From Craspedostauros australis (taxonomy: Eukaryota): a stretch of DNA of 44,309 nt. This document shows, piece by piece, positions 17,628 through 38,560 of the stretch. A model generated the notes under the pieces. That model saw nothing but the letters and a program-made list of their open reading frames with translations. It made no database searches and was not told where the DNA came from. A program made the translations under genes and the position numbers. The stretch's first letter is position 1; each line of letters opens with the position of its first letter. The stretch covers positions 1-44,309 of the forward strand of contig JALAGF010004865.1 in assembly GCA_030167865.1 (NCBI GenBank). Direction: 5' to 3'.

Positions 17628-18911
17628 ATGACCCCCAACATGGATGCTGTCGCCAACACCAATACCAACAGCGATTCTGGTTCAGATTTCAAGACTTTCT
17701 GGAAACAGCTCCATGGAAAAGAGCTGTCACCGAAGATCGTGTTCAATGTGCAGCGCCTACTAGCGAAGCGGATCGACTGCTACAGTGTCACACCCAAGCG
17801 GATGGAATACTGGGACATGGCCATCGAAGCGGGATTCACTTTTGATGACTTGGAGTCGATGAAGCGGCAGCACAAGCACGTTGCATTATCACCTCATGTT
17901 CTACTGAGCAATTGGCTTCGCAGGGGCTGCGGGCGGATGAGCATTGGATCCCTGTATCTGGAATTCGGCACCATTGACCAATTCGGAGAAGAAGATAAGC
18001 GAGCGATTCGCTTCGTACTTCGATTGGCTGTCCAACACCCACCCGAGTCCACATCCGGCCGGGGTATCCGCTTGACTCAATGCTTCATGAAGATGAAACA
18101 GCTCCACGATATCCCTCTTGTGATGCATCATGTGCATTTGCATTCATGTGATCTTGTTGGTTGCGACACGCTCATGTTCAACATCTCCCAAAACTCGAAA
18201 TACGTTGAGTTTCGAAACTGTAAGCTTGCCGATGGGGGCGCTGATTTGTGCAGATGGCTGTCTCCAAACAATAGTCGCGTCACCGAAATATCATTTTTAC
18301 GCAACTGTATCAGTTGCGATAGCTTGGCAAAGCTATTCCAGTCAAACAAGCGCATCAACAAGCTCGACATCATGTTCTGTCGGGTCTACGACGGACAACA
18401 CATCGACCAGATCATCAAGGTCCTTTCAGATGCATCACACCTGAGGGAGCTCAGGGTTTACGACAATTGGGACAGGTCATCGCGACAAGGGCAGACGGCA
18501 AGGTTCGACACTTTGGTATCGCTTCTGGGAAACAATGGCTTGTCATCTCTCACATACTGTGACTTCTTGGATCCCGGCATGTTTGAGGTTCCGCCTGAGA
18601 CCCTCTCGGCACAAATGGAAGCACTTCAGCAAGCCTTGGAGGAGACTACCCAACTCACCTATCTCGACATTTATCCACTCCCGCCTGATGAACATGTCCA
18701 TTTGTACAATGCGCTTGTTGAACGTATCTTGAAGCGAAATCATTGCAACAAGGTGAGAGCGGTGCTGCATTCCCTTCAGACATGGTCGCGGCCACTGGCC
18801 CTGTTTGGGAAGATGCTGACGACAAGAAGCCGGCGTTGGGGTCCAATGGGTTCCACGAACGAGACTTTCCATCTTCTGTTGCAGTGCGGTGAGCTGTTGG
18901 AGCGGACATGA
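17628..18911 (+). CDS. RNI-like/degenerate LRR protein, paralog A1 (427 aa)
   Basis: ATG at 17628 is in a similar context to the other paralog starts. Periodic strands VHLHSC, YVEFRNC, VTEISF, INKLDI, LRELRV, LSSLTY and LTYLDI alternate with amphipathic helices (LAKLFQSN, LQQALEET). The fold assignment is an inference. Confidence 0.8.
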   Translation: MTPNMDAVANTNTNSDSGSDFKTFWKQLHGKELSPKIVFNVQRLLAKRIDCYSVTPKRMEYWDMAIEAGFTFDDLESMKRQHKHVALSPHVLLSNWLRRGCGRMSIGSLYLEFGTIDQFGEEDKRAIRFVLRLAVQHPPESTSGRGIRLTQCFMKMKQLHDIPLVMHHVHLHSCDLVGCDTLMFNISQNSKYVEFRNCKLADGGADLCRWLSPNNSRVTEISFLRNCISCDSLAKLFQSNKRINKLDIMFCRVYDGQHIDQIIKVLSDASHLRELRVYDNWDRSSRQGQTARFDTLVSLLGNNGLSSLTYCDFLDPGMFEVPPETLSAQMEALQQALEETTQLTYLDIYPLPPDEHVHLYNALVERILKRNHCNKVRAVLHSLQTWSRPLALFGKMLTTRSRRWGPMGSTNETFHLLLQCGELLERT

Positions 18912-19170
18912 GATGACAAGAGAGCGGATCGGCTCGTCCGAGCTGATGGTGCTTCTGCTTGCGGTGTGGAAAAGAAAGGCACATCGATGGTTGATGCGAT
19001 CCTGCATTGCCTTGGAGTACTCTGGTCGTAGAGTAATTAGAACGGCTTATGAAGACAGGATTGATACTCTGGTGCATGTGAGTGTATTGTTGTACGAGTG
19101 GGATGGAACAAGGGAGATGGTGGGTGATTGTGATTGCGTGTTGTGGTTGGTGAGAAGTATGGAATGTCTA

Positions 19171-20079
19171 TTAACAGCAAACGAAAGCGTCCACGGAACC
19201 TATCTGCGCCACATCACGATGAAGAAGGACACATCCCGGAACTTGGCCAACGGCCCCAAGGAGGTCTCCAGATATCTCAGCAGACCAATCAGCCTTGGCT
19301 GTGGTGGTCGTGATGTCCATGATGCTCGTGATGGTGGACCATCGCTTGTCCTTGTATTCTGTCTGCAGAATATCTTCGAGGCTGTTCTCGCCATTGCCTT
19401 GTTCATCGCACTGCATATAGTATTGCCGAATGACGTTGACCATACAGTTGGCATCTTGGATGGCCTGATTGGCGCCCTGTCCCAGGAATGGTGGCATGGC
19501 GTGCGCCGCATCACCGCAGACAGTCAGGATGGCGACCTTGTCTGCGCCGGTGCTTCCATTGCGGTTGCAGTTGCGATTTCCGTTGATGGCCCTCATCGCC
19601 TTGGTCCATCGCGCAAAGGGATTGTGGAAGTAGATCCCCAACTCGAAGAAAGAATCGGCATTGTCCATGAGTCGATCGATGATGAGCCTTGTGGTGTGTG
19701 TGGGGATCTTGGCATCGTCGATCTGCTGTCACATCTGTTGCTGGATGCGTTTGGCCTCGGATGATGCCTTCCAAGCGACGGTCTCGTCGTTGGTGTCGAT
19801 GGCGTCAGTTTTGCTGACGGTCTCGAAATTTGCGCCAAGGAGAGACCGGCGATGCCACCACCGATAACTGCGACCTTCCGTACTGGTTGGTGATTCTCAT
19901 TCCCATTCCCATTGCTGCTTCGCTTCTGCTGCTTCACTTCTGCGTTGGAGTGAAGATGACGGGGATGGTGATGACAGTGTCTTCGTTGTCACCACCATGC
20001 ACGCAATGTAGATGGCACCGATCATCCTCTTTTGATGCATCAACCACGTCATTGGTGTCATTGATGCCAATGCCGCCAT
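19171..20079 (-). pseudogene. FAD-dependent monooxygenase (salicylate hydroxylase/zeaxanthin epoxidase-like, class A flavin monooxygenase) pseudogene F1
   Basis: RKVAVIGGGIAGLSLA (GxGxxG) and VCGDAAHAMPPFLGQGANQAIQDA (GD fingerprint) lie in different frames only ~350 nt apart. Multiple frameshifts; central domain and C-terminal end are deleted. Confidence 0.85.
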
Positions 20080-20751
20080 TGCTGTGATTCCTCTGGTTGC
20101 GGCTGTCTCTGTGGTTGCGCAATCATTGAGTGAGGAATCAAGTCAACCAGCCGGCATTGTTCGAAGCCTCTCTCTCGAAGCAGAGAGGGAGAGACGGAGC
20201 ATTGGCATGCTCTGTGAATAGATACTTGATGGCAACGGTGATCATCATGTGAGCATTGCGGTTGTGACGATCTGCATCAGTATTCTACAGCGATGTCTGC
20301 AGCAGCACCACCACGGTCATCGTCATCGCCACAGATTTCGCAATGATTGAGTGAGGCGAGATGAGTCCTGGATACGTTTGTTGTGAATTGAAACACGAGT
20401 GGTGTCGCCATCGTCGCCATCATCGACCTCGCAACAAAACGTGAGAAACGCCTCTGATGTCCACTGAAGAAGTCATTGTGGTGGGTTCTTCACATCATGG
20501 AACTACCCATTACAGTCGTTCGATCACATCCAACTGCCGAAGTATGTATAGTATGTATTCATATGGCACAATGGTTGACTCCCCCAAGACCATCACAGAG
20601 GGATGTGCCTACTCAGATAACACAAACAATGGTATTGCATGAAGAGGCACAACTGCACAGCGTGGCCAAGTTGGGTATCATCAAAGGTCGTATCGTGCGA
20701 GCGGGCGAGCTAGGCAGCTTCGGATCATGATGTGAATATCCACGGTCGTAT

Positions 20752-20810
20752 CATACCATACCACACCATACCACAACGCACCACAACGCACCACACCACA
20801 CCATACACAG
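20752..20810 (+). repeat. Degenerate pentanucleotide (ACCAT/ACCAC) microsatellite in the upstream block, length-variable among units
   Basis: cataccataccacaccataccacaacgcaccacaacgcaccacaccacaccatac here; different versions at ~17376, ~25668, ~30458 and ~33961. Confidence 0.8.
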
Positions 20811-21035
20811 TGGTGGAACTGCGCAAGTCCATGAAGGCGTGTTGACTGACGACACGTTGCTTCGTGATGAATGTACAGGATCATGGAATGGAGGACAGCA
20901 AACTTGAGCAGATGAGCTCACAATCGCCATCCAAGCGCAACTGATTTGGGACCACATACTCTGCCTGCTCTGCTGCTGTGCAACCAACACTATCGACAGC
21001 CCCCACCATAAACAGCATCGACAACACATAGCAGG

Positions 21036-22406
21036 ATGGCTTTCAACATGCATGGTGACGCCAACACCAATACCAACAGCGATCATGATCCAGACTTCAA
21101 GACTTTCTGGAAACAACTCCATGGAAAAGAGCTGTCACCGAAGACCCCATTCAACACGCAGTGCCCACACGTAGAGCAGGTCGACTGCTACAGTGTCACA
21201 CCCAAGCGGATGGAATACTGGGACATGGCCATCGAAGCGGGATTCACCTTTGCTGACTTGGAATCGACGATGAAGCGGCACAAGTACGTCGCTTTCTCAC
21301 CTCATGTTCTACTGAGCGATTCGTTTCGCCAGGGCTACAAGCGGATGCGTATTGGACCCTTGACTCTGGACTTCAGCAGCCAAGACCAATTCGGAGAAGA
21401 AGACAAGCAAGCGATTCGCTTCTTACTTCGATTGGCTGTCGAACACCCACCCGAATCTTCATTCGACGAAGGCATCAGCTTGAATCAATGCTTCGTGAAG
21501 ATGAAGCAGCTCCACGATATCCCTCTTGTGACACATCGTGTGGATTTGTGTTATTGTGATCTTGTTTATTGCGACAAATTCATGCTCAACATCTCTCAAA
21601 ACTCGAAATGGGTTGTGTTATATAAGTGTCAGCTTGCCAATGGGGGCGCTGATTTGTGCAGATGGCTGTCTCCAAACAATTGCAGCGTCACCGAAGTATC
21701 CATTTTATTCACCCGTATCACTTGTGATAGCTTGGCAAAGCTATTTCAGTCAAACAAGCGCATCAACAAGCTCAACATCAGTTGGTTTTGGTTCTCCAAC
21801 GAAGAATCCTACTTTCGACAAGAAATCGATCAGATCATCCAACTGCTTTCAGATGCATCACACCTGAAGAAGCTCAAAGTTTCCAATCATTGGTTTGGGT
21901 CACCGCCGCAAGAGCAGGATACAAGGCTCGATGCATTGATATCGCTCCTGGGAAACAAGAGCTTGTCATGTCTCACCTTCTCTGCCAGTGGTGCTCCCAC
22001 CATGCCTGAGATTCCGCCTGAGATCCTCTCGGCACAAATGGAAGCACTTCAGCAAGCCTTGGAGCAGACTACCCAACTCACCTATCTCCACATTTCTCCA
22101 AGCCTGCCCAACAAACATGACCATTGGTACGATGCACTTGTTGAACGTACCTTGCGTCGAAATTATCGCACCAAGATGAGATCAATGCCGCGTTCCCTTC
22201 CAACATGGTCGCGACCACTGGCCCTGTTTGGGGAGGTGCTGATGAGAATAAGCAAACGTCAGAGTAGACTTGATCCAGTGGGTTCCACGAACGAGACTTT
22301 TCACATTCTGCTGCAGTGCAGTGACATGTTGAAACAGACATGGGACGATCGTCGTGCCGATCGGCAACGACCAGACACAACAGAAGAAATAGCGCCGCAG
22401 CGATAA
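21036..22406 (+). CDS. RNI-like/degenerate LRR protein, paralog A2 (456 aa)
   Basis: Intact ORF, collinear with A1 and A3-A5. Confidence 0.8.
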   Translation: MAFNMHGDANTNTNSDHDPDFKTFWKQLHGKELSPKTPFNTQCPHVEQVDCYSVTPKRMEYWDMAIEAGFTFADLESTMKRHKYVAFSPHVLLSDSFRQGYKRMRIGPLTLDFSSQDQFGEEDKQAIRFLLRLAVEHPPESSFDEGISLNQCFVKMKQLHDIPLVTHRVDLCYCDLVYCDKFMLNISQNSKWVVLYKCQLANGGADLCRWLSPNNCSVTEVSILFTRITCDSLAKLFQSNKRINKLNISWFWFSNEESYFRQEIDQIIQLLSDASHLKKLKVSNHWFGSPPQEQDTRLDALISLLGNKSLSCLTFSASGAPTMPEIPPEILSAQMEALQQALEQTTQLTYLHISPSLPNKHDHWYDALVERTLRRNYRTKMRSMPRSLPTWSRPLALFGEVLMRISKRQSRLDPVGSTNETFHILLQCSDMLKQTWDDRRADRQRPDTTEEIAPQR

Positions 22407-22821
22407 GATCATGGGCCTTCTGCCAGCGCAATGAAATTGGCAGCCAACTGGCCACACTCGTGAAAGCGACGGAGCTTCTGATTGGCGCTCGGTGTTCACA
22501 AAACAAAGAAAGGTGTGTCGATGATTGATGCGGTACTGTATCACCTTAAACAACTGTAGGACAACTACTCTCGTCTATCTCCACTGACTGCAAGCGAGTC
22601 GAATATGTCCATGCCCGTGCGCGTTCCTGAAAGACTACAAAACTGATGCATCTGCAATGACGAGAAACCACGCACCGTCAACACCAAACAAAGCAACGAG
22701 AGTCACGATGATACGATACTACTATTTGGGATACTCTATCTCCGGCGATCGGCATGCTTGACTTGCGGTCAACGAAAGTCAGAGGCGTCGGCAGCGAGAG
22801 TCGCAAAACAAAACTGATGTT

Positions 22822-24482
22822 TCAGCCAGCCAGCACGACGCCTGCTGCGATGCCACCACCCACGATAAGGACAGCCACGATGACGATGGGGACCATGTTG
22901 GTGCTTTTGTTCGATGCTGGTTCCTGCTGCAACGTCGGTGTGGTGGTGGTGGTGGTGGTGGTGGTCGTCTGTGCCTCAATGTCGACAGAATGCATGCTTG
23001 TGGTGTTGCCAGTGTCCTGCTCGACCACGTTGTTCAGATCGAGATGCTGGCTGGATCCCTTGGAGGGTCCGATGGATTCTTTTCGCGTGAGCTGCTTGAC
23101 TGGTGGATCTTGATTGATGGTTTGCTCCGGATCAGTTGTGGGCATCATGGGAGTGATGGATATTTCGATGGAGTTGGTGCGCGAGACGAGCTGGGTGGGC
23201 ATGTCCTCGTTGGTGTCGTTGGTCTCGTTGAGGAGGATGGCGGAATGAGTGGATTGGCTTTTGTCCAAAACCACTCCGGCTGAAGCGGAACTACCGCTCA
23301 TGAGGCGGTTGGCGGATGTGGAGATGTACGTTGACGCTGGGTCTTTGGCGGAAGCTGGATCCTCACCATCCATGTCCATGTCCATGTCCATGTCCATGTC
23401 CACATTGCTGTGGTTGGATTCCTTGGAAAGGGAGTTGGTGGAGTCCTGGTTGCCATGATTGCTGGTCGATGAATTGGAGGTGGCGGCCGTGCGCTGGGTG
23501 CCGTCATTTTTTGGCGGAGACCATGGAGGAGAAGATCCCGGAATCCCCATTGGAATGGGCACCGAATTCGCCTGGCTTGCGTTTGTTGCCAGTTCTGGTG
23601 GACGGTCGCTCCGTCTCGTCGCCCTCCTCGCCTTCGACGACAGACTCCAGTCCACCTTCCTGGCGGATGGAGGACATCCTCTTGGCGGCGGAGAAGCCGA
23701 AGGACGAGATCCCCGTTGGAGGAGGCGTTGGGGCTGCCTCTGGCCAGCTGGGGCGTCCTGGCTGTCCTGGACGGCGCGGTGGTGGTGGTGTTGGGAGATG
23801 TTCCGATCGCACGTGGAGGCTGGTAGGATGTGGAACGGAATTCGTCACGAAAGGAGTCGTCTCGCATGGAGTCGTCCTCGTCTGTGAACTCGTCGAAGCC
23901 TCCATCGGTCGTCTTGTCGGTCATCTTGTCGCCCGCCTCCTCATCGGAACACTGGCTCTCGATGTCGTCATCGTCATCATCGTCGATGATGTGGATGTCG
24001 TCATCTATCTGCTGCGTGTTGGCGCCGGCACCCGCGCTGACGTTGTGACTCTGGCTGTGACTCTGGCTGCGACTGCGGCTGTTGGCGTCGGCACCCTCAT
24101 CGTCGTCGCTGTTGTCGCTGTCAATGTCGTCGTCCAGGCCTTCGTCCAAGCCTTCGTCGAAGGGCTCCTCGTCGCTGTCCACCACCCTCGCACTGATGGA
24201 GTCAATCATGTCGGCGTCGAAGTCCTGCTGCGAGTGCATGGAGAACTCTGCCTCATTTTCATCGCTGTACACGGTCTGCTGCTTGCTGCCCAGGTCGTTC
24301 ATGTACTTGGAGGTGTAGGCGGAGCTGTAGCCGGTGGGCGATGATGCTGCCGATGACGACATGGAGCTTGGTGATGGCGCAGAGTTGCGGCCGTACTGGT
24401 GGCCGGTCTTGCGTTCAATGCCGGACGTGGAGGAGGACGACCGTGAAGCCTTGCTGGTGAATGGGAATCTGTTGTCTTCCAT
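22822..24482 (-). pseudogene. Frameshifted copy (T1) of acidic low-complexity tail-anchored protein
   Basis: Collinear with 27688-29313 but split across three ORFs (23298..24482, 23504..23905, 22822..23655) by two +1 insertions, at ~23709 (gagatccccg vs gagcccccg) and ~23507-23512 (T6 vs T5). Sequencing error is possible. Confidence 0.7.
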
Positions 24483-24854
24483 CGATTTGTGTTGCCTTCT
24501 GTTGCCTTGTATTGTGTTGTTTTGGGAATGATCTGCTCTCTTGCTTCGTTCAATCGTTCAATCGTTCAATCGCACAATGATCGATGGTCAATGTTGAATG
24601 TTGAATGTTGAATGGACGGCCTATTGCGACTAACGTAATTGCTGATGGCGCAGTATCCAGTATCCGATGTCCAATGTCCAATGTCGAGTGGTTCTACTCT
24701 CCCTCTCTGTGCAGGGATCATATTGAGGCAATGGGCTGATGCGATGCGATACAACACTGTGGTTGATGTTGATGATGGTCTCGTTGCTGCGATTGTTGCG
24801 CCTGCCAGAGGAAATGGCCGTCGGTGGTTCTCAATCCACGACGGAAGAAAAGTG

Positions 24855-24957
24855 TCGGGGATGATGATGACAGTGAGTCCGTTGCCACCAACATGCACGC
24901 GATGCAGATGGCGCCAATCATCCTCTTTTGATGCATCAACGATGTCATTGCTGCCAA
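24855..24957 (-). pseudogene. 5' remnant (signal-peptide-like N-terminus) of the FAD-monooxygenase gene
   Basis: MAAMTSLMHQKRMIGAICIACMLVATDSLSSSSP matches the N-terminus that is fused to KIAVIGGGIAG in F2 (32996..33271). Homology stops at ~24855. Confidence 0.7.
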
Positions 24958-25924
24958 TGCTGCCGTTGCTGTGATTCTTCTGGTTGTGGCTGTCTCTGTG
25001 GTTGGGCGATCAATGAGTTAGGAACCAAGTCAACCAGCCGGCATTGTTCGAAGTCTATCTCCAGAAACAGAGAGAAACGAGAGAGGGAATGTTGGTATCG
25101 TACTCTGAGGATAGACGCTTGATGGTGACAGTGATCATAATGTGAGTGTTGCGGTTGTGACGATCTGCGTCAGTATTCTGCAGCGATGTCTGCAGAAGCA
25201 CCACCACGGTCATCGTCATCGCCGCAGGGTTCGCAATGATTGAGTGAGGCGAGATGAGTCCTGGATACGTTTGTTGACGATTGAAACACGAGTGGTGTCA
25301 CCATCGTCATCAGCGTCACCATCCTCTCGACAAAACGTGAGAAACGCCTCCGATGTCCACCGATGAAGTCATCGCTGTGGATCCGTCACATCGTGGTGGA
25401 TTCTTCGCATTGCGGATCCGCCCATTGCGGTCGTTCGATGACATCCAACTGCCGAAGTACATAGAATAGTATGCATTCGTATGGCATAATGGTTGACTCC
25501 CCCAAGACCATCACAGAGGGATGTGCCTACTCATATTACACAAGCTATGGTATCACACGAAGAGGCGCAACCGCACAGCACGGCCAAGTTGGGCACCATC
25601 GAAAGTCGTATCGTGTGAGCGAGCGAGCCAGCTAGCTTCGGATCATGATGTGAACATCCACAGTCGTACCATACCACGCCACGCAACGCCATACACCTTG
25701 GTGGAACTGCGCAAGTCCATGAAGGCGTGTTGACTGATGGTAGATCCCTTCATGATGAATGCACAGGATCATGAAATGGAGGACAGCAAACTTGAGCAGA
25801 TGAGCTCATAATCGCCATCCAAGCGCAACTGATTTGGGACCACATACTCTGCCTGCTCTATCAGCTGTGCAACCAACACTATCGACAACCCCCACAATAA
25901 CCAGCATCGACAACACATAGCAAG

Positions 25925-27274
25925 ATGGCTTTCAACATGGATGGTGTCACCAACACCAATACCAACAGCCATCATGATCCAAACTTCAAGACTTTCTGGA
26001 AACAACTCCATGGAAAATGGTGGATCCCGAAGACCGTGTTCACTCCGTGGTATCCACGAGCAGAGCAGATCGATTGCTACAGTGTCACACCCAAGCGGAT
26101 GGAATACTGGGGCATGGCCATCGAAGCAGGATTCACCTTTGCTGACTTGGAATCGATGATGAAGCGGCACAAGCACATTGCTTTATCACCCCATGTTCTG
26201 CTGAGAAATTGGAATCACTGGGACTGCGGACTGATGAGTATTGGATCCCTGAAACTGGAATTCGGCAGCCATGACCAATTCGGAGAAGAAGACAAGCAAG
26301 TGGTTCGCTTCGTACTTCGATTGGCTGCCAAACACCCACCCAAAGCTTGGTTCGACCAATTAATCTACTTGCCTCAATGCTTCGTGAAGATGAAGCAGCT
26401 CCACGATATCCCTCTTGTGTCACGTCGTGTGGATTTGTATTTTTGTGATCTTGTTGATTGCGACAAGCTCATGTTCAACATCTCCCACAACTCAAAATAC
26501 GTTGAGTTTCGTTTATGTAAGCTCGCCAATGGGGGCGCTGATTTGTGCAGATGGCTGTCTCCAAACAGTTGCAGCATCACCGAAGTATCCTTCCCAAACT
26601 CCACTATCACTTGCGATGGCATGGCCAAGCTATTCCAGTCAACCAAGTGCATCAACAAACTCCACATCGACTTCGGTCTGGTCCACAGCGCCCGACGAAT
26701 CCACTCAAAACAAGAAATCGACCAGGTCATCCAACTCCTTTCAGATGCATCACACCTGAAGAAGCTCACGATTTCCAATGTTTGGAGCGGATCATCGGAA
26801 CCAGATCAGAATGCAAGGTTCGACACTTTGATATCGCTTCTGGGAAACAAGAGCTTGTCATCTCTCACATACTCGGACTTCTTGCATCCCGACAGGTTTG
26901 AGGTTCCGCCCGAGATCTCCTCGGCACAAATGGAAGCACTTGAGCAAGCCTTGGAGGAGACTACCCACCTCATCTATCTCGACATTTATCCACGCCTGCC
27001 TGGCGAACATGCCCATTGGTACGATGCGTTTGTCGAACCTATCTTGCGGCGAAATCATCGCAACAAGATGAGAGCAGTGTTGTGTTCCCTTCCGACATGG
27101 TCGCGACCACTGGCCCTGTTTGGGAAGATGCTGATGAGAACAAACAAACGTGGGGGTACAATGGGTCCAATGGGTTCCATGAACAAGACTTTTAACATCC
27201 TGCTACAGTGCAGTGAGATGTTGAAACAGACATGGGACGATCGTCGTGCCGATGAGCAACGGCAGAAGAAATAG
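25925..27274 (+). CDS. RNI-like/degenerate LRR protein, paralog A3 (449 aa)
   Basis: Intact ORF, collinear with the other paralogs. Confidence 0.8.
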   Translation: MAFNMDGVTNTNTNSHHDPNFKTFWKQLHGKWWIPKTVFTPWYPRAEQIDCYSVTPKRMEYWGMAIEAGFTFADLESMMKRHKHIALSPHVLLRNWNHWDCGLMSIGSLKLEFGSHDQFGEEDKQVVRFVLRLAAKHPPKAWFDQLIYLPQCFVKMKQLHDIPLVSRRVDLYFCDLVDCDKLMFNISHNSKYVEFRLCKLANGGADLCRWLSPNSCSITEVSFPNSTITCDGMAKLFQSTKCINKLHIDFGLVHSARRIHSKQEIDQVIQLLSDASHLKKLTISNVWSGSSEPDQNARFDTLISLLGNKSLSSLTYSDFLHPDRFEVPPEISSAQMEALEQALEETTHLIYLDIYPRLPGEHAHWYDAFVEPILRRNHRNKMRAVLCSLPTWSRPLALFGKMLMRTNKRGGTMGPMGSMNKTFNILLQCSEMLKQTWDDRRADEQRQKK

Positions 27275-27687
27275 CGCCGCAGTGATAAGATCATGGGTCT
27301 TCAATGAAATTGGGAGCCAACTGGCCACACTCGTGAAAGCGACGGAGCTTCTGATTGGTGTTCACAAAGCAAGGAAAGGTGTATCGATGATTGATGCGAT
27401 ACTGTATCACCTTAAACAACTGTAGGACAACTACTCTCATCCAACTCCACTGACTGCAAGCAAATCGAGTATGTCCATGCCAGTGCTCGTTCCTGCGAAG
27501 ACCACAAAACTGCAATGACGAGAAACGACATAGCGTCAACACCAAACAAAGCAGAGAGAGTCACGATGATACTATAATACGATACTACTATTTGGGATAC
27601 TCTATCTCCGACGATCGGCATGCTTGACTTGCGGTCAACGAAAGTCAGAGGCGTCAGCAGCGAGAGTCGCAAAACAAAACTGATGTT

Positions 27688-29313
27688 TCAGCCCACCAGC
27701 ACGACGCCTGCTGCGATGCCACCACCCACGATAAGGACAGCCACGATGACGATGGGGACCATGTTGGTGTTTTTGTTCGGTGCTGGTTCCTGCAACGTCG
27801 GCTTTGTGGTGGTGTTGGTGGTCGTCTGTGCCTCAATGTCGACAGAATGTATGCTTGTGGTGTTGCCGGTGTCCTGCTTGACCACGTTCTTCGAATCGAG
27901 ATGCTTGCTGGATCCCTTGGAGGGTCCGATGGATTCTTTTCGCGTGAGCTGCTTGACTGGTGGATCTTGATTGATGGTTTGCTCCGGATCAGTTGTGGGN
28001 ATCATGGGAGTGATGGATATTTCGATGGAGTTGGTGCGCGAGACGAGCTGGGTGGGCATGTCCTCNTTGGTGTCGTTGGTCTCGTTGAGGAGGATGGCGG
28101 AATGAGTGGATTGGCTTTTGTCCAAGACCACTCCGGCTGAAGCGGAACTGCCGCTCATGAGACGGTTGGCGGATGTGGAGATGTAGGTTGACGTTGGGTC
28201 TTTGGCGGAAGCTGGATCCTCACCATCCATGTCTGTGTCCATGTCCATGTCCATGTCCATGTCCACATTGCTGTGGTTGGATTCCTTGGAAAGGGAGTTG
28301 GTGGAGTCCTGGTTGCCATGATTGCTGGTCGATGAATTGGAGGTGGCGGCCGTGCGCTGGGTGCCGTCGTTTTTGGCGGAGACCATGGAGGAGAAGATCT
28401 CGGAATCCCTATTGGAATGGGCACCGAATTCGCCTGGCTTGCGTTTGTTGACAGTTCTGGTGGATGGTCGCTCCGTCTCGTCGCCCTCCTCGCCTTCGAC
28501 GACTGGCTCCAGTCCACCTTCCTGGCGGATGGAGGACATCCTCTTGGCGGCGGAGAAGCCGAAGGACGAGCCCCCGTTGGAGGAGGCGTTGGGGCTGCCT
28601 CTGGCCAGCTGGGGCGTCCTGGCTGTCCTGGACGGCGCGGTGGTGGTGGTGGTGGGAGATGTCCCGATCGGGCGTGGGCGCTGGTCGGATGTGGAACGGA
28701 ATTCGTCACGAAAGGAGTCGTCTCGCATGGAGTCGTCCTCGTCTGTGAACTCGTCGAAGCCTCCATCGGTCATCTTGTCGCCCGCCTCCTCATCAGAACA
28801 CTGGCTCTCGATGTCATCATCATCATCGTCGATGATGTGGATGTCGTCGTCTATCTGCTGCGTGTTGGCGCCGGCATCCGCGCTGACGTTGTGACTCTGG
28901 CTGTGGCTGCGACTGCGGCTGTTGGCGTCGGCACCCTCATCGTCGTCGCTGTTGTCGCTGTCAATGTCGTCGTCCAGGCCTTCGTCGAAGGGCTCCTCGT
29001 CGCTGTCCACCACCCTCCTCGCGCTGATGGAGTCCACCATTTCGGCGTCGAAGTCCTGCTGCGAGTGCATGGAGAACTCTGCCTCATTGTCATCGCCGTA
29101 CACGGTCTGCTGCTTGCCGCCCAGGTCGTCCATGTACTTGGAGGTGTAGGCGGAGGCGTAGCCGGTGGGCGATGATGCTGCCGATGACGACATGGAGCTT
29201 GGTGATGGCGCAGAGTTGCGGCCGTACTGGTGGCCGGTCTTGCGTCCAATGCCGGACGTGGAGGAGGACGACCGTGAAGCCTTGCTGGTGAACGGGAATC
29301 TGTTGTCTTCCAT
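27688..29313 (-). CDS. Acidic, S/D/T-rich disordered protein with a single C-terminal TM helix (tail-anchored), copy T2
   Basis: Open frame of ~541 codons from ATG 29313 (two N bases inside). Ends with MVPIVIVAVLIVGGGIAAGVVLVG-stop; no N-terminal signal peptide. Confidence 0.75.
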   Translation of the reverse strand: MEDNRFPFTSKASRSSSSTSGIGRKTGHQYGRNSAPSPSSMSSSAASSPTGYASAYTSKYMDDLGGKQQTVYGDDNEAEFSMHSQQDFDAEMVDSISARRVVDSDEEPFDEGLDDDIDSDNSDDDEGADANSRSRSHSQSHNVSADAGANTQQIDDDIHIIDDDDDDIESQCSDEEAGDKMTDGGFDEFTDEDDSMRDDSFRDEFRSTSDQRPRPIGTSPTTTTTAPSRTARTPQLARGSPNASSNGGSSFGFSAAKRMSSIRQEGGLEPVVEGEEGDETERPSTRTVNKRKPGEFGAHSNRDSEIFSSMVSAKNDGTQRTAATSNSSTSNHGNQDSTNSLSKESNHSNVDMDMDMDMDTDMDGEDPASAKDPTSTYISTSANRLMSGSSASAGVVLDKSQSTHSAILLNETNDTXEDMPTQLVSRTNSIEISITPMXPTTDPEQTINQDPPVKQLTRKESIGPSKGSSKHLDSKNVVKQDTGNTTSIHSVDIEAQTTTNTTTKPTLQEPAPNKNTNMVPIVIVAVLIVGGGIAAGVVLVG

Positions 29314-29689
29314 CGATTTGTGTTGTCTTCTGTTGTCTTGTGTTGGGTTGGGTTGTGTTGTTTTGGGAATGATCCGCTCTGTTGCTTCGTTCAATCCTCC
29401 AATCGTTCAATCGTTCAATCGTTCAATGATCGATGCTCAATGTTGAATGGACGGCCTATTGCGACTAACGTAATTGCTGATGGCGCAGTGTCCAGTATCC
29501 GATGTCCAATGTCCAATGTCGAGTGGTTCTACTCTCTCCCTCTCTCCAGTGATTATTGAGGCAATGGGGTGATGCGATGCGATACAACACTGTGGTTGAT
29601 GTTGATGATGGTCTCGTTGCTGCGATTGTTGAGCCTGTCAAAGGAAATGGCCGTCGGTGGTTCTCAATCCACGACAGAAGAAAAGTGTC

Positions 29690-29800
29690 GGGGATGGTGA
29701 TGACAGTGAGTCCGTTGCCACCAACATGCACGCGATGCAGATGGCACCAATCATCCTCTTTCGATGCATCAACGATGCTATTGCTGCCGTTGCTGCCACT
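29690..29800 (-). pseudogene. Second 5' remnant of the FAD-monooxygenase N-terminus
   Basis: gatgacagtgagtccgttgccaccaacatgcacgcgatgcagatggcaccaatcatcctc is homologous to ~19970, ~24866 and ~33180, and is truncated at the same point as the 24855 remnant. Confidence 0.65.
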
Positions 29801-30732
29801 GTTGTGATTCTTCTGGTTGTGGCTGTCTCTGTGGTTGGGCGATCAATGAGTGAGGAACCAAGTCAACCAGCCGGCATCGTTCGAAGTCTCTCTCCAGAAA
29901 CAGAGAGAAACAAGAGAGAGAGTGTTGGTATCGTACTCTGTGGATAGACACTTGATGGCAACGGTGATCATCATCTGAGCGTTGCGGTTGTGACGATCTG
30001 CATCAGTATTCTGCAGCGATGTCTGCAGCACCACCACCACCATCGTCATCGTCATCATCACAGAGTTCGCAATGATTGAGTGAGGCGAGATGAGTCCTGG
30101 ATACGTTGGTTGTCGATTGAAACACGAGTGGTGTCATCATCGCCATCATCCTCCCAACAAAACACGAGAATCACCTCTGATGTCCACCGAAGAAATCATC
30201 GTGGAGGATTCGTCACATTGCGGATCCGCCCATTGCGGTCGTTCGATGACATCCAACTGCCGAAGAACTGTATCGATCGGAGTGGTATCGCGGCTGACTC
30301 CCCCAAGATCATCACAGAAGGATGTACTCATATTACAAACTATGGTATCACATGAAGAGGGACAACTGCACAGCGTGGCCAAGTTGGGCACCATCGAAGG
30401 TCGTATCGTGCGAGCGAGCGAACGATCTTCGGATCGTGATGTGGCTGTCCACGATCGTACCATGCCATACCACACCGAACCATACCATACCATATCACAC
30501 CACACCATACGCCATGGTGAAACTGCGCAAGTCCATGAAGGCATGTTGGCTGACGGCACGTTGCTTCGTGATGAATGCACAGGATCATGAAATGGAAGAC
30601 AGCAAACTTGAGCAGATGAGCTCATAATCGCCATCCAAGCGCAACTGATTTGGGACCACATACTCTGCCTGCTCTACTCGTACGATTGTACCACCAACAA
30701 CAATCAGCAACGACAACGACGACAAGAAAAGG

Positions 30733-32130
30733 ATGAGCCGCACCATGTATGGTGATGCCAACACCAACACCAACAGCTACCATGATCCAGACTTCAAGAC
30801 TTTCTGGAAACAGCTCCATGGCAAAGAGCTGTCACCGAAGACCATGTTCAATGTGCAGAGTCATCCAAGACAGCAGATCCACTGCTACAGTGTCACACCC
30901 AAGCGGATGGAACACTGGGACATGGCCATGGAAGCAGGATTCACTTTTGATGACTTGAAATCGATGCAGCGGCGGCACGATCACGTTGCTTTATCACCTC
31001 GTGTTCTACTGAGCGGTTCGTTTCGCAGGGGCCGAGGGCGGATGTATATTGGATCCCTACATCTGGAATTCGGCACCATTGAACAATTCGGAGAAGAAGA
31101 CAAGCAAGTGATTCGCTTCGTACTTCGATTGGCTACCGAACACCCATCCAAATCTTCATCTGACGAAGGCATCCGCTTGACTCAATCCTTCGTGAAGATG
31201 AAGCAACTCCACGATATCCCTCTTGTGACACAATATGTGGAGTTGGATTCGTGTGATCTTGTTGATTGCGACAAGCTCATGTTCAACATCTCCCAGAACT
31301 CGAAATACGTTGAGTTTCGAAACTGTAAGCTCGCCGATGGGGGCGCTGATTTGTGCAGATGGCTGTCTCCAAACAATTGCAGAGTCACCGAAGTATCATT
31401 TTTATGCACCCGTATCACTTGTGATAGCTTGGCAAAGCTACTCCAGTCAAACAAGCGCATCAACAAGCTCAACATCAGTTTCTGTCGGGTCCACAACGAC
31501 CAACAATTCTCCTCACAACAAGAAATCGATCAGATCATCCAACTCCTTTCAAATACATCGCACCTGAAGGAGCTTTGGGTTTTCGGTATTTGGGAAGGGT
31601 CATCGCGACAAGAGCAGATGATGATATTCGACCCTTTGATATCGCTTCTGGGGAACAAGAACTTGTCATCTCTCACATACGAGATCGGTGGGAAGCCCAG
31701 CATGTTCGAGATTCCGCCCAAGATCCTCTCGGCACAAATGGAAGCACTTCAGCAAGCCTTGGAGGAGACTACCCAACTCACCTATCTCGACATTTATCCA
31801 CGCCTGCCTGACAAACATGCCCATTGGTACAATGCACTTGTTAAACGTATCTTCTGGCGAAATCATCGCAACAAGGTGAGAGCCGTGCTGGGTTCCCTTC
31901 CGACATGGTCGCGACCACTGGCCCTGTTTGGGGAGATGCTGACGAGAACAAGAAAACGTCGGGGTAGAATGAATGCAATGGGTAGAATGAATCGCAGGAG
32001 CGAGACTTTCCATCTCCTGTTGCAGGGCAGTGACATGTTGAAACAGGCGTGGGATGACAAAAGAGCGGGTCAGCTCGTCCAAGTTGATGGTGCTTCTGCC
32101 CGCATTGTGAAAAGAACGGTACATACATGA
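30733..32130 (+). CDS. RNI-like/degenerate LRR protein, paralog A4 (465 aa)
   Basis: Intact ORF, collinear with the other paralogs. Confidence 0.8.
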   Translation: MSRTMYGDANTNTNSYHDPDFKTFWKQLHGKELSPKTMFNVQSHPRQQIHCYSVTPKRMEHWDMAMEAGFTFDDLKSMQRRHDHVALSPRVLLSGSFRRGRGRMYIGSLHLEFGTIEQFGEEDKQVIRFVLRLATEHPSKSSSDEGIRLTQSFVKMKQLHDIPLVTQYVELDSCDLVDCDKLMFNISQNSKYVEFRNCKLADGGADLCRWLSPNNCRVTEVSFLCTRITCDSLAKLLQSNKRINKLNISFCRVHNDQQFSSQQEIDQIIQLLSNTSHLKELWVFGIWEGSSRQEQMMIFDPLISLLGNKNLSSLTYEIGGKPSMFEIPPKILSAQMEALQQALEETTQLTYLDIYPRLPDKHAHWYNALVKRIFWRNHRNKVRAVLGSLPTWSRPLALFGEMLTRTRKRRGRMNAMGRMNRRSETFHLLLQGSDMLKQAWDDKRAGQLVQVDGASARIVKRTVHT

Positions 32131-32407
32131 TTGATGCGATCCTGGATGGCCTTCGACAACTCTGGTCGTCGAGTAATTAGAACAGCGCATGGAGACGGGA
32201 TTGATACTCTGGTCCATGTGAGTGTGTTGTTGTACGAGTGAGATGGAACAAGGGAGATGGTTGGGTGATTGTAATTGCGTGCGGTAATTGGCGAGTAGAA
32301 GGGAATGTCTAGATTGTATGAGTATGGCTGGTCCATCAACAGCAAGCGAAAGCTGTCCACAGAACCTATCTGCATCACATCGCGATTTCACACCGCTCCG
32401 CACATTC

Positions 32408-33271
32408 TCATATTCTTAGAACAGCAGCATCCAGAACGGTCTTCTTCGCAACGCCTGTCTTGTCCATCATGAAGAAGGACACACCCCAGAACTTGGCCAA
32501 CGGTCCCAACGAGGCCTCCAGGCACCCCAGTAATCCAGCCTTGGCCGTGACACCTGTGATGTCCATGATGCTCGTGGTGGTAGGCCATCGCTTGTCCTTG
32601 TATTCTATCTGCAGGATGTCTTTGAGGCTGTTGCCACCATTGGCTTGTTCACCATGCTGCATGGTATGCTGCTGAATGGCGTTGGCCAGGCAGTAGGCGT
32701 CTTGGATGGCCTGATTGGTGCCCTGTCCAAGGAACAGAGGCATGGCGTGCGCCTCATCACCGCAGACAGTCAGGACGGCGACCTTTTCTGCGCTGGTGCT
32801 TCCATTGCGGTTGCGGTTGCGATTTGTGTTGGTGGCCACCATCGCCTTGGTCCATCACGCAAAGGGCTTGTGGAAGTAGATCTCCAACTCGAAGAAACGA
32901 TCGGCACTGTCGATGATAGGCCTTGTGGTGTGCATGGGGATCTTGGCATCGTCGATCTGCTGTCACATCTGTTGCTGGATACGCTCGGCCTCGGATCATG
33001 CCTTCCAAGCGACGTTGTTGTCGTTGGTGTCGTTATTGCTGTTGTTCTCGAAAGCATGCGCCAAGGAGAGACCGGCGATGCCACCACCGATGACTGCGAT
33101 CTTCCGCCTTGGTTGGTGATTCTCATTCCCGTTGCGACTGATGCTGCTGCTGCGTTGGAGTGAGGATGACGGGGATGATGATGACAGTGAGTCCGTTGCC
33201 ACCACCATGCACGCGATGCAGATGGCACCAATCATCCTCTTTTGATGCATCAACGATGCCATTGCTGCCAT
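32408..33271 (-). pseudogene. FAD-dependent monooxygenase pseudogene F2
   Basis: Signal-like N-terminus plus RKIAVIGGGIAGLSLA, followed by a stop. A separate frame reads VCGDEAHAMPLFLGQGTNQAIQDA...LDAAVLRI-stop. It shares the central deletion seen in F1. Confidence 0.85.
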
Positions 33272-34249
33272 TGCTGTGATTCTTCTGGTTGTGGCTGTCT
33301 CTGTGGTTGGGCGATCAATGAATGAGGAATCAAGTCAACCAGCCGGCATCGTTCGAAGTCTCTCAAGAAGCAGAGAGGGAGAGTATTGGTATGTTCTGTG
33401 GATGGACACTTGATGGTGACAGTGATCATCATGTGAGCGTTGCGGTTGTGACGATCTGTCTCAGTATTCTGCAGAGATGTCTGCAGCACCACCACCACCA
33501 TCGTCATCGTCATCATCACAGAGTTCGCAATGATTGAGCGAGGCGAGATGAGTCCTGGATACGTTTGTTGTCGATTGAAACGCGAATGGTGTCACCATCG
33601 TCATCGCCATCACCCTCTCGACAAAACGTGAGAAACGCCTCCGATGTCCACCAAAGAAGTCATCGTTGTGGATCTGTCACATCGTGGTGGATTCTTCGCA
33701 TCGTGGAGAATTCGTCACATTGCGGATCCACCCATTGCGGTCGTTCGATGACATCCAACTGCCGAAGAACTGTATCGATCGGAGTAGTATCACGGTTGAC
33801 TCCCCCAAGACCATCACAGAGGGATGTACTCATATTACAAACTATGGTATCACATGAAGAGGGACAACTGCACAGCGTGGCCAAGTTGGGCACCATCGAA
33901 GGTCGTATCATGTGAGCGAGCGAGCCAGCTTCGGATCGTGATGTGCCTGTCCACGGTCGTACCATACCATATCATACCATCGCACAGGATGTCATACACT
34001 GTGGTGGAACTGCGCAAGTCCATGCAGGCATGTTGACTGACGACACGTTGCTTCATGATGAATGCACAGGATCATGAAATGGAAGACAGCAAACTTGAGC
34101 AGATGAGCTCACAATCGCCATCCAAGCGCAACTGATTTGGGACGACACACTCTACCAGCACTACTCGTACGATTGTACCACCAATAACAACAATCACCAG
34201 CAGCACGGACAACAGCAACGACAGCAACGACAGCGACAACAAGAAAAGG

Positions 34250-35578
34250 ATGAACCGGAACATGGATGTTGTCACCAACACCAATACCAGCAGCGATCAT
34301 GATCCAGACTTCAAGACTTTCTGGAAACAACTCCATCGAAATGAGCTGCCACCGAAGACCATGTTCAATGTGCAGAGTCATCCAAGACAGCAGATCCACT
34401 GCTACAGTGTCACACCCAAGCGGATGGAACACTGGGACATGGCCGTCGAAGCAGGATTCACTTTTGATGACTTGAAATTGATGCAGCGGCGGCACGATCA
34501 CGTTGCTTTATCACCTCGTGTTCTACTGAGTGGTTCGTTTCGCAGGGGCCGAGGGCGGATGTATATTGGATCCCTACATCTGAACTTCGGCAGCAATGAC
34601 CAATTCGGAGAAGAAGACAAGCAAGTGATTCGCTTCGTACTTCGATTGGCTGCCAAACACCCATTTGAATCTTCATCCGACGAAGGCATCTACTTGACTC
34701 AATCCTTCATGAAGATGAAGCAGCTCCACGATATCCCTCTTGTGACACATCGTGTGAAGTTGTACTCATGTGATCTTGTTGATTGCGACAAACTCATGTT
34801 CAACATCTCACAAAACTCGAAGTGGGTTGCGTTTACTTCCTGTAAGCTCGCCAATGGAGGCGCTGATTTGTGCAGATGGCTGTCTCCAAACAATTGCAGC
34901 GTCACCGAAGTATCCTTTAAAATCACCCATATCACTCGCGATAGCTTGGCAAAGCTATTCCAGTCAAACAAGCGCATCAACAAGCTCGACATCACTTTTC
35001 ATGGTGACTACAACGGACAACGAACCTACTCACAAGAAGAAATCGACCAGATCATCAAACTCCTTTCGGATGCGTCACACCTGAAGAAGCTCAAAGTTTC
35101 CAATCATTGGTTTGAGTTATCGCGACAAGAGCTGGATACAAGGCTCGATGCATTGATATCGCTTCTGGGAAACAAGAGCTTGTCATCTCTCACATACTGG
35201 GACTTCTTGCATCCCGACTTGTCTGAGGTTCCGCCCGAGATCTCCTCGGCACAAATGGAAGCACTTCAGCAAGCCTTGGAGCAGACTACCCAACTCACCT
35301 ATCTCGACATTGATCCACGCCCGCCTGGCGAACATGCCCATTCGTACAATGCGCTTGTTGAACATAGCTTGCGGCGAAATCATCGCAACAAGGTGAGAGC
35401 AGTGCTGGGTTCCCTTCCAACATGGTCGCGGCCACTGGCCCTGTTTGGGGAGATGCTGATGAGAACAAGCAAACGTCGGTGTACAATGTATGCAATTGGT
35501 CTAATGGGCACAATGGATCCCATGAGCGAGACTTTCAACATTCTGCTGCAGGGCAGTGAGACGTTGAAACAGGCGTAG
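34250..35578 (+). CDS. RNI-like/degenerate LRR protein, paralog A5 (442 aa)
   Basis: Intact ORF, collinear with the other paralogs; a mosaic of A4-, A2- and A3-like segments. Confidence 0.8.
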   Translation: MNRNMDVVTNTNTSSDHDPDFKTFWKQLHRNELPPKTMFNVQSHPRQQIHCYSVTPKRMEHWDMAVEAGFTFDDLKLMQRRHDHVALSPRVLLSGSFRRGRGRMYIGSLHLNFGSNDQFGEEDKQVIRFVLRLAAKHPFESSSDEGIYLTQSFMKMKQLHDIPLVTHRVKLYSCDLVDCDKLMFNISQNSKWVAFTSCKLANGGADLCRWLSPNNCSVTEVSFKITHITRDSLAKLFQSNKRINKLDITFHGDYNGQRTYSQEEIDQIIKLLSDASHLKKLKVSNHWFELSRQELDTRLDALISLLGNKSLSSLTYWDFLHPDLSEVPPEISSAQMEALQQALEQTTQLTYLDIDPRPPGEHAHSYNALVEHSLRRNHRNKVRAVLGSLPTWSRPLALFGEMLMRTSKRRCTMYAIGLMGTMDPMSETFNILLQGSETLKQA

Positions 35579-35754
35579 GATGACAAGAGAGCGAATCAGC
35601 TTGCCGCACCAAAAGAAGATCTCATTTCCCACGATAAACCACGGCACAAGAAGCGGCATCGCCTTGATGAAACCAAGGCACTTCTGCGAGTGTGGCAGAA
35701 GTGATCGTAGACTGGTGGTACTTATCAATACAATGGTGCTTCAGCTTGACTGTT

Positions 35755-35757
<3 letters not shown>

Positions 35758-35788
<31 letters not shown>
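35758..35788 (+). repeat. (AG)~15 microsatellite
   Basis: Perfect dinucleotide run. Confidence 0.95.
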
Positions 35789-35792
<4 letters not shown>

Positions 35793-38445: not shown

Positions 38446-38560
38446 TTCAGAATGATTCAGAATCNNNNNNNNATTCAGAACGGATTCAGACTTTCAGAAC
38501 CGATTCAGAACGGAGTCAGAACTTCAGAACTTCTGACTTTTTCCATTCTGATTCTGAATC
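38446..38560. repeat. TTCAGAA/ATTCAGA-based minisatellite block 1 (spans N gap 38465-38472)
   Basis: attcagaacggattcagactttcagaaccgattcagaacggagtcagaacttcagaacttctga. Confidence 0.85.

Follow-up and report, generated by a model that had tools for sequence, protein, structure and literature searches.

Several described families of leucine-rich repeat (LRR) proteins bear on the tandem array of five genes, A1 to A5, that was analysed here in a 44,309-nt stretch of the genome of the diatom Craspedostauros australis (GenBank assembly GCA_030167865.1, contig JALAGF010004865.1, positions 1 to 44,309, forward strand; hereafter the window). The ribonuclease inhibitor is a cytosolic protein that consists essentially of one RNI-type solenoid, with about 15 regular A/B repeats of 28/29 residues and no enzymatic or signalling domain. 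Its RNase A ligands are vertebrate-specific and, according to Kobe and Deisenhofer, its ligand contacts reportedly come largely from the C-termini of the strands and the strand-to-helix loops. Fast evolution of the LRR part is typical of NLR sensors. The plant R-gene, RLP and PGIP clusters are known from the general literature to evolve in tandem by unequal crossing-over and exchange between paralogs, with the hydrophobic scaffold kept and an excess of replacements at exposed strand positions; the PGIPs are LRR-only proteins. We consider it probable that the diatom array encodes LRR-only binding modules in which the scaffold stays constant while the predicted ligand surface diversifies. The five genes, found as open reading frames (ORFs), are the following.

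17628-18911, plus strand: A1, LRR paralog of 427 aa (ORF, alignment), ending at TGA in place of the tail Trp codon
21036-22406, plus strand: A2, LRR paralog of 456 aa (ORF, alignment, tblastn)
25925-27274, plus strand: A3, LRR paralog of 449 aa (ORF, alignment, tblastn)
30733-32130, plus strand: A4, LRR paralog of 465 aa, the copy used for folding (ORF, AlphaFold2 model)
34250-35578, plus strand: A5, LRR paralog of 442 aa (ORF), ending at TAG in place of the tail Trp codon

Like the ribonuclease inhibitor, A1 to A5 are predicted to be cytosolic and to consist essentially of an RNI-type solenoid (Z 13.2-13.8 against the inhibitor), and the contact regions named above are those in which their selected sites fall. 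They differ from the inhibitor in having eight irregular repeats spaced by 22-38 residues and additional N- and C-terminal regions, and no sequence similarity to it is detectable. The best structural matches are the LRR sensor domains of NLRs (NLRP9, NLRP3, NLRC4, NOD2, NLRX1; Z 12-14.3), which are intracellular, as A1 to A5 are predicted to be. Unlike the NLRs, the five proteins are stand-alone LRRs for which Pfam gives no NACHT, NB-ARC or other NTPase match at E<=10, in agreement with the first-pass annotation of this DNA, which had noted that an NTPase domain is missing. The F-box/LRR (FBXL) adaptors are set apart by their F-box, of which Pfam shows no trace in A1 to A5 at E<=10, and SKP2 and FBXL17 (Z 12-13) match no better than other LRR proteins.

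The features listed above for the plant clusters recur in A1 to A5, the exposure of the strand positions being predicted, except that replacements here are in excess nearer the strand end and the loop behind it. Plant RLPs and PGIPs are moreover extracellular, with 24-residue LRRs and a signal peptide, and A1 to A5 have neither. In contrast to the lamprey VLRs, whose incomplete germline gene is filled in from LRR cassettes beside it, the diatom genes are complete germline ORFs, and a tblastn search with A4 over the whole window found these five copies only, with no remnant or partial LRR cassette flanking them or elsewhere. In their behaviour, A1 to A5 match LRR recognition and inhibitor families, which duplicate in tandem, exchange sequence and accumulate an excess of replacements on the binding face.

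Among stramenopiles, a study of Ectocarpus describes LRR-ROCO and NB-ARC-TPR proteins as candidate receptors; their genes are physically clustered, turn over rapidly by birth and death, and bear signs of diversifying selection in the repeat domain (PMC3341825). They are, like A1 to A5, stramenopile repeat-protein families, and were proposed as recognition receptors; they differ in possessing ROC-COR GTPase or NB-ARC domains and in shuffling exons of one repeat each (same passages of PMC3341825), whereas A1 to A5 are single-exon genes without an NTPase domain that diversify by point change and paralog exchange. In the benthic pennate diatom Seminavis robusta, the tandem duplicates are mainly LRR-containing proteins, among other families, and the expansions are largely species-specific and less constrained; the passages in question hold no site-level selection analysis or structural mapping (PMC7335047). 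For Pseudo-nitzschia, excerpts of a further report mention LRR receptor-like kinases with Ka/Ks above 1 (PMC5485032). Since diatoms are already known to have tandem LRR expansions and LRR kinases whose Ka/Ks exceeds 1, the general phenomenon is not new. Searches of the literature on diatoms, LRRs and selection yielded no description of the present family, though the supplementary gene lists of PMC7335047 and PMC5485032 could include relatives.

Gene copies and reading frames

A1 to A5 form a tandem array of single-exon ORFs of 427-465 aa on the plus strand, with start-to-start spacings of 3408, 4889, 4808 and 3517 nt. The proteins are 65-77% identical overall (65-72% to A1, 66-77% to A4). The description of five paralogs in the first-pass annotation is thus borne out, and the six sets of peptide windows that it quoted from the copies match the sequence exactly. 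The two strings of 34 and 22 nt that it gave as common to all copies occur exactly five times each, once per copy, with none expected in 100 shuffles. The conserved scaffold that it saw between the variable positions extends to the nucleotide level: V, L, C, D, L and V codons are identical in all five copies, and a codon display shows that they alternate, often codon by codon, with others in which one to three bases differ.

The coding regions are collinear in frame, unlike the indel-rich upstream flanks, where the 640 nt before each start show 4-10 indels per pair, of arbitrary length and many not multiples of 3. All five copies had been said to stay open. The frames are intact to residue ~425, whereas the tail is truncated in A1 (TGA) and A5 (TAG) by nonsense at a Trp codon (18909-18911 in A1, 35576-35578 in A5) that is TGG in A2 to A4. 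The two changes are independent and trim the last ~20-25 tail residues, with alignable homologous DNA (DDKRA...) continuing downstream; the tail is thus dispensable and the rest of the ORF protected. When each copy's differences from the majority consensus (115-150) were applied at random, 4.2-5.2 stops were expected per copy, and the probability of an open frame was 0.005-0.014 per copy. In the real copies no stop occurs before residue ~425, and a single tail codon is affected. We show that the reading frames and the hydrophobic/Cys scaffold are kept by purifying selection.

A cytosolic location agrees with a crude test for membrane segments and signal peptides, both of which had been noted as missing: Kyte-Doolittle means over 19 residues peak at 1.05, and the N-termini, with means of -0.8 to -1.3, are hydrophilic.

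Predicted fold

An AlphaFold2 (AF2) model was made for A4 only, from a six-sequence alignment. Its mean predicted local distance difference test score (pLDDT) is 72.6 and its predicted template-modelling score 0.73, with a pLDDT of 86-94 over residues 150-250. Strands and helices alternate from residue 147 to 355, the strands covering residues 147-150, 168-172, 192-196, 220-224, 245-250, 280-286, 313-319 and 351-355, with a helix after each. The first core residues of the repeats (147, 169, 193, 221, 246, 281, 314, 352) are irregularly spaced by 22, 24, 28, 25, 35, 33 and 38 residues. A periodic motif of the type LxxLxLxx(N/C)xL is present, for example V-x-L-x-x-C-D-L and V-x-F-x-x-C-K-L, with a core that is invariant or conservatively replaced in the five copies. 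Hypervariable windows were defined as two residues before to six after the first core residue of each repeat.

31165-31806, plus strand: LRR solenoid of A4, residues 145-358, eight predicted strand-helix repeats (AF2 secondary structure)
31159-31185, 31225-31251, 31297-31323 and 31381-31407, plus strand: A4 hypervariable windows 1 to 4 (repeat register, variability)
31456-31482, 31561-31587, 31660-31686 and 31774-31800, plus strand: A4 hypervariable windows 5 to 8 (repeat register, variability)

Foldseek gave 20 matches at E<=1e-3, every one of them an LRR protein; NLRP9, NLRX1, NLRP14, ribonuclease inhibitor, tropomodulin, SKP2/FBXL17, NLRC4, NLRP3 and SDS22 are among them. On re-alignment with VIA, NLRP9 reached Z 14.3 (root-mean-square deviation 3.8 over 210 residues, model residues 100-418) and ribonuclease inhibitor Z 13.8. 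The nearest protein-atlas clusters belong to LRR_TMOD-LMOD / LRR_6 families, many of them from Bacillariophyta. The solenoid of RNI type that the first-pass annotation had proposed is thus what the model predicts, and A1 to A5 are best regarded as RNI-type LRR solenoids on this structural ground. Sequence-based searches were silent: no Pfam family exceeded its gathering score in the five proteins, LRR_R13L1-DRL21 coming closest with 14.9 bits (cut-off 27), two of the proteins had no Pfam match even at E<=10, and a profile search of PDB chain sequences gave no match at E<=10.

An unassigned N-terminal region of ~130 aa had been noted. The N-terminal 145 residues form a block of pLDDT 60-89 in the whole-protein model and drop to 40.9 when folded alone, too poor for a fold search. 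The region contains LxL-type strands, for example I-G-S-L-x-L-x-F at residues 106-113. Because it is confident only within the solenoid and some of its strand sites are under positive selection, it resembles an irregular extension or cap at the N-terminal end of the LRR more than a domain of its own. No N-terminal effector domain (TIR, CC, PYD, CARD) was matched by Pfam in the five proteins, the separate model of this region being as poor as stated, and Pfam recognised no other signalling or enzymatic domain in them.

The last ~60 residues of A4 are modelled as low-confidence helices. This C-terminal region contains a conserved basic cluster at A4 residues ~405-412 (~31945-31968) and at the homologous positions of the other copies (RTRKRRGR, SKRRCT, NKRGGT). 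By its composition, one might speculate that it is a nuclear-localisation-type patch.

Selection on the coding sequences

Codon likelihoods were computed with our own pruning code under GY94-F3x4 for three partitions, each with its own tree, and not with PAML or HyPhy. The one-ratio model M0 gave an omega (dN/dS) of 1.33, and freeing omega from 1 yielded twice a log-likelihood difference (2dlnL) of 6.6. Comparison of M1a (log likelihood, lnL, -4181.77) with M2a (lnL -4133.71) gave a 2dlnL of 96.1, with 15.6% of the sites at omega 7.6, 71% at 1 and 13% at 0; the values were similar for M7 against M8 (95.6) and for M8a against M8 (95.05). When codons at most six from a gap were removed, the M1a-M2a difference was still 87.9. 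The signal resides mainly in the LRR region, which taken alone gave 84.0 with 17% of the sites at an omega of 10.7, as compared to 19.7 for the N-terminal and 0.68 for the C-terminal region. In all 12 data sets simulated under M1a, 2dlnL was 3.2 or lower.

The same comparison was made with terms for other sources of heterogeneity. With three synonymous-rate classes the difference was 21.5 (p 2e-5) and with a multi-nucleotide term 54.4; with both together it was 21.0 (p 2.7e-5), with ~17% of the sites at omega ~5. We show in this way, and by the mapping described below, that ~15-17% of the codons evolve at omega ~5-8 and are concentrated at the C-terminal ends of the strands and in the following loops of successive repeats.

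Position of the fast-evolving codons

Sites with an M2a posterior above 0.9 were taken as selected, which applies to 27 of the 426 ungapped codons. Strands as assigned by DSSP in the model, each extended by the next four residues, make up 127 of the 426 codons and take in 20 of the 27 selected sites (odds ratio 7.8, p 1.2e-6). Helices are depleted, with four selected sites in 177 codons. Most of the selected sites extend from the last strand residue to four beyond. Of 56 x and loop positions chosen a priori 12 are selected (odds ratio 6.5, p 3e-5), while the 40 classical x positions of the xxLxLxx motif hold seven (p 0.008). Selected sites in the N-terminal region (34, 45, 46, 105, 110 and 116) are at or near predicted strands. 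From LRR geometry it follows that the selected sites would line the strand-to-helix edge of the concave face. Of the earlier expectation that the variable sites cluster on one surface, the clustering in and after strands thus stands, and a single surface would follow from the LRR register. The further claim that these sites often change to W, Y, F, H or R holds modestly: such residues are enriched (41 of 135 against 372 of 1995), carried by R, H and Y and not by W.

Relatives of the family found in protein collections (see below) were used as an independent comparison, in which residues absent from all five copies were counted at selected and at other sites. Such novel residues were more frequent at selected sites in the relatives P0001 (21 of 25 against 146 of 380, p 8e-6), P0002 (5 of 18 against 20 of 202, p 0.04) and P0003 (3 of 4 against 15 of 97, p 0.02); in P0004 the difference (2 of 12 against 11 of 81) was not significant.

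Exchange between copies and silent sites

The history of the copies cannot be drawn as one tree. Among informative 2|3 sites, A4|A5 is supported only at alignment nt 132-510 and 1261-1326, while the splits at nt 503-1170 support A2|A5, A1|A4 and A2|A4. The best M0 topology is ((A2,A3),A1,(A4,A5)) for codons 1-170 and ((A1,A4),A3,(A2,A5)) for codons 171-420, and separate trees per segment gain 81 lnL units under M0. We thus show that the copies exchanged segments and that their phylogeny is a mosaic.

The 34-nt block mentioned above is the longest run of nucleotide-invariant codons (11 codons). Such a run was reached in 169 of 20,000 column shuffles, and silent variation at amino-acid-invariant codons is unclustered (14,993 of 20,000 shuffles had as few runs); the blocks of silent identity therefore need no special mechanism. 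Silent-site constraint and regional hypermutation were considered and rejected, since the shuffles show no clustering and synonymous-rate classes, when added to an M2a that already contains the multi-nucleotide term, bring a 2dlnL of only 8.7 for four parameters.

Possible function and alternative explanations

Viruses, algicidal bacteria and parasitic oomycetes and chytrids all afflict diatoms, in which to our knowledge no pathogen-recognition receptor has been functionally defined. The five intronless genes would encode a lineage-restricted, probably cytosolic, LRR-only protein with about eight irregular strand-helix repeats (residues ~145-358), an N-terminal continuation or cap, a helical C-terminal region and a dispensable tail. 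The selected positions would run as a stripe along the concave side of the solenoid and contact the ligand there; if so, the paralogs, together with more copies elsewhere in the organism, would represent a repertoire of binding modules with differing specificities for variable protein ligands. As ligands, partners that are non-self or evolve fast would be the likeliest, for instance viral, bacterial or parasite effectors and toxins. The proteins may act by sequestering or inhibiting the ligand, as ribonuclease inhibitor and PGIPs do, or by passing it on to a separate partner. The fold, the site clustering and the omega values, on which the first-pass annotation had said that its idea of diversifying recognition receptors might fail, did not refute it; its structural and evolutionary parts are supported, and an immune-receptor function of A1 to A5 is put forward here as a hypothesis. 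Rarity, a well-predicted binding scaffold and a replacement excess where LRRs contact ligands make the array a concrete and testable set of candidates. Even with a function outside immunity, it would illustrate, in one small natural locus, how a scaffold is conserved while the surface diversifies and paralogs exchange sequence, dynamics that in the diatom lineage have so far been described only as family counts.

A protein with the same fold and evolutionary mode could have another job, for instance as a substrate adaptor of ubiquitin-ligase type or as a regulator of endogenous fast-evolving partners, by which we mean mating or self/non-self proteins and cytoskeletal or flagellar-type LRR proteins. 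Repeats such as ...ITCDSLAKLLQSNKRINKLNISFC resemble what we take to be the consensus of the cysteine-containing LRR subtype of FBXL proteins, which would speak for an adaptor; the structural matches include SKP2, FBXL17 and TIR1 (Z 11.8-13.1), with some SKP2 alignments beginning at model residue 14-30, and LRRs of axonemal proteins, tropomodulin, CARMIL and RanGAP score similarly. The sex-regulated genes of Pseudo-nitzschia include two LRR receptor-like kinases whose Ka/Ks exceeds 1 (PMC5485032). Against such a role, no F-box or other adaptor domain was detected in the five proteins (Pfam, E<=10) and the N-terminal region does not fold by itself. The structural matches do not decide the matter: SKP2, RanGAP, CARMIL and axonemal LRRs, and RNI-type LRRs in general, lie within ~2 Z units of the best, and the fold therefore does not discriminate between functions. 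We regard such a job, in place of sensing or inhibiting foreign molecules, as unlikely.

Relaxed constraint would explain the array as young tandem duplicates of a permissive repeat protein that drift near-neutrally, with no diversification driven by ligands; heterogeneous rates, recombination and the small number of sequences would then have produced the class at omega > 1. Several results weigh on this side and against diversification of a ligand surface. The selection data are five sequences analysed with self-written likelihood code and with breakpoints set by eye from the splits; the site posteriors are naive empirical Bayes values on five taxa, and the surface placement rests on secondary structure and motif register. 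About 63-71% of the codons are at omega ~0.8-1, which relaxed constraint would produce alike, and gene-wide counting gives a dN/dS of 0.79-1.16. When omega is kept at <=1, a null that has three rate classes (lnL -4134.99) nearly equals plain M2a, and most of the raw signal is therefore rate heterogeneity, with a 2dlnL of 21 as the residual evidence. At the 40 classical x positions, Nei-Gojobori counting gives a pN of 0.299 and a pS of 0.289, with a dN/dS of only 1.05 (95% bootstrap 0.68-1.70), because pS is also raised there over the 0.163 of the rest of the protein; the claim of omega above 1 thus holds in the site models, including those with synonymous-rate and multi-nucleotide terms, with the value counted at the x positions close to 1. 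Two of the five copies, A1 and A5, lost their C-terminal tail by nonsense. In S. robusta, tandem duplicates are less constrained than dispersed ones, with LRR proteins prominent (passages of PMC7335047).

Other observations are hard to reconcile with drift. The likelihood ratio of 21 (p ~3e-5) remains with both correction terms, and the simulated null data never approached the observed values. The fast sites are non-random, being frequent in strands and post-strand loops and few in helices, and no stop was found before residue ~425 where 4-5 per copy are expected neutrally. The coding sequence (CDS) diverges more than the adjoining non-coding flank within the A1/A4/A5 group and between A2 and A3: CDS against own upstream flank, the p-distances are 0.130 and 0.089 for A4/A5, 0.153 and 0.098 for A1/A4, 0.164 and 0.099 for A1/A5 and 0.180 and 0.123 for A2/A3, with overall ranges of 0.13-0.195 for the whole CDS and 0.089-0.19 for the upstream non-coding DNA. 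Counting was also done by position class. The pN of the 40 x positions was matched by none of 20,000 random sets of 40 codons, as compared to a pN of 0.147 for the rest of the protein, and the two positions after the motif have a pN of 0.287 and a pS of 0.136 (dN/dS 2.42); pooled x and following positions give 1.21 (0.83-1.95). The 16 core positions show a pN of 0.056 and a pS of 0.065, and pS at the 204 amino-acid-invariant codons is 0.124. The high pS at hypervariable codons is attributed in part to multi-step replacement paths counted as silent. Relaxed constraint is in our judgement distinctly unlikely as the explanation.

That the clustered multi-base differences are a mutational patchwork, made by short templated conversion from a diverged pool of paralogs or by targeted hypermutation, is very unlikely: the multi-nucleotide term does lift the lnL of M2a from -4133.71 to -4115.88, pS is raised at hypervariable codons, recombination between copies is evident and contigs of a sequencing run (see below) point to further copies and possible mosaics, but the contig joins may be assembly chimeras, invariant and hypervariable codons alternate at single-codon spacing, finer than any conversion tract or hot-spot window, silent variation is unclustered at amino-acid-invariant codons, and omega > 1 survives the multi-nucleotide and synonymous-rate terms.

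An extension of the proposal that A1 to A5 are diversifying binding modules is that diatoms have an intracellular immune system split in two, in which these stand-alone LRRs would be the variable sensors and would signal in trans through a separate partner; we hold this to be quite improbable. It would entail a germline repertoire of dozens of recombining LRR binders that recognise effectors of viruses, algicidal bacteria and parasites. A conceivable partner would be a STAND-type NTPase such as may be encoded 14 kb away by the AAA_16 ORF at 1-3681 (minus strand).

Relatives and expression

When a profile was built from A1 to A5 and compared with 1.84 billion representative proteins, five matches were obtained at E<=1e-3. 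P0001 is a full-length relative of 479 aa with 46% identity, P0002 to P0004 are fragmentary, and the fifth, a weak match (E 1.3e-10), falls on the repeats of an LRR protein of 2083 aa. A word-indexed protein search returned P0001 alone at near lengths and P0002 to P0004 at shorter lengths. The family is thus near-absent from very large protein collections, with four close relatives and one weak match. P0001 scored 13.1 bits against LRR_4 of Pfam (cut-off 27). Metagenomes were scanned with protein patterns and, separately, with a conserved string of 23 nt, and neither scan produced a match.

P0003 and P0004 are peptides from a transcriptome project on marine eukaryotes (diatom), which suggests that relatives of the family are transcribed and lends indirect support to transcription of A1 to A5. 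Contigs of sequencing run X1, which is RNA by guess only, were placed on positions 28067-36000 (7.9 kb), which include A4 and A5. The 562 contigs comprise 140 with at least 99% identity, 201 with 95-99% and 221 with 90-95%. Depth is concentrated on A4 and A5 and on the ~500 nt upstream of each; the gaps in cover at 29127-30186 and 33102-33631 are uninformative. In one contig an A4-like 5' part (to 31594) is joined to an A5-like 3' part (from 35211). These contigs suggest that the organism has many more family members; they fit transcripts and prove neither.

Array layout and neighbouring genes

Self-comparison of the window showed how the array is built. A core of ~650 nt of upstream flank plus the CDS is common to all five copies, and the blocks homologous to that of A4 begin at 16987, 20355, 25248 and 33542 (self-BLAST). 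Two longer units follow each other directly, and the spacers contain other genes or remnants.

30084-32386, plus strand: repeat-unit core, A4 unit (self-BLAST)
19957-24852 and 24853-29685, strand not assigned: two full-length tandem units of ~4.85 kb each (self-BLAST)
27688-29313, minus strand: Y2, Ser/Thr/Asp-rich with a C-terminal hydrophobic segment, an intact 541-aa ORF with two N bases (ORF)
22822-24482, minus strand: Y1, a copy of Y2 (96.6% identical) broken into two overlapping ORFs by two 1-nt insertions
19171-19668, minus strand: FAD-dependent monooxygenase remnant, located in the short spacer between A1 and A2 (C-terminal part of PF01494 only)
32408-32842, minus strand: paralogous FAD-monooxygenase remnant in the short A4-A5 spacer (PF01494)

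We show from this layout that the array grew through unequal crossing-over of units of ~3.4-4.9 kb. Identity between the two long units is 85-90% for the upstream part, 74-86% for the A CDS and 91-99% for the Y region; the parts therefore have different histories, and divergence is mosaic here also. A mobile element was considered as a cause and discarded, as no inverted repeats of at least 40 nt occur in 14000-38000 and the window has no Rfam match.

Y1 and Y2, read as membrane-protein genes and carried in the two long units, are mucin-like with (DM)n repeats, and they are far more alike than the adjoining LRR genes. Read in the Y2 frame, their differing codons comprise 32 non-synonymous and 14 synonymous ones. 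It had been claimed that neighbours duplicated together with the LRR genes have decayed, which fits Y1 with its two insertions and not the intact Y2. The window contains ten N bases in all (28000, 28066 and 38465-38472), two of them inside Y2; given this draft quality, single-base frameshifts such as those of Y1 could be errors. The two FAD-monooxygenase remnants are ~84% identical to each other and match only positions ~288-323 of the 349-position PF01494 model.

The upstream flank common to all units contains an ORF in two of them, at 16993-17631 (plus strand, 212 aa) and 30090-30590 (plus strand, 166 aa), which has no Pfam match. It is open in units 1 and 4 only, and the TGA of unit 1 overlaps the A1 start as ATGA. 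From the deep cover by X1 contigs on the flanks of units 4 and 5, the upstream flank may be a long 5' untranslated region.

Three short-chain dehydrogenase paralogs with 69-74% nucleotide identity lie around the array, one before it (14718-15956) and two behind it (36489-37559 and 39474-40529, all minus strand), an arrangement that suggests an older segmental duplication around the array. The ORF at 1-3681 (minus strand), at least 1227 aa long and open at the window edge, contains an AAA_16 P-loop domain (E 2e-15) and a faint hint of MalT-type TPR (E 0.024, under the cut-off); located ~14 kb from the LRR genes, it is a possible STAND-type NTPase, judged by its domain matches. Also upstream of the array are an ORF with a DUF6824 domain, presumably a diatom-associated one, at 12270-13958 (minus strand, E 4e-19) and an ankyrin-repeat ORF at 5098-6159 (plus strand, Ank_2, E 6e-43).

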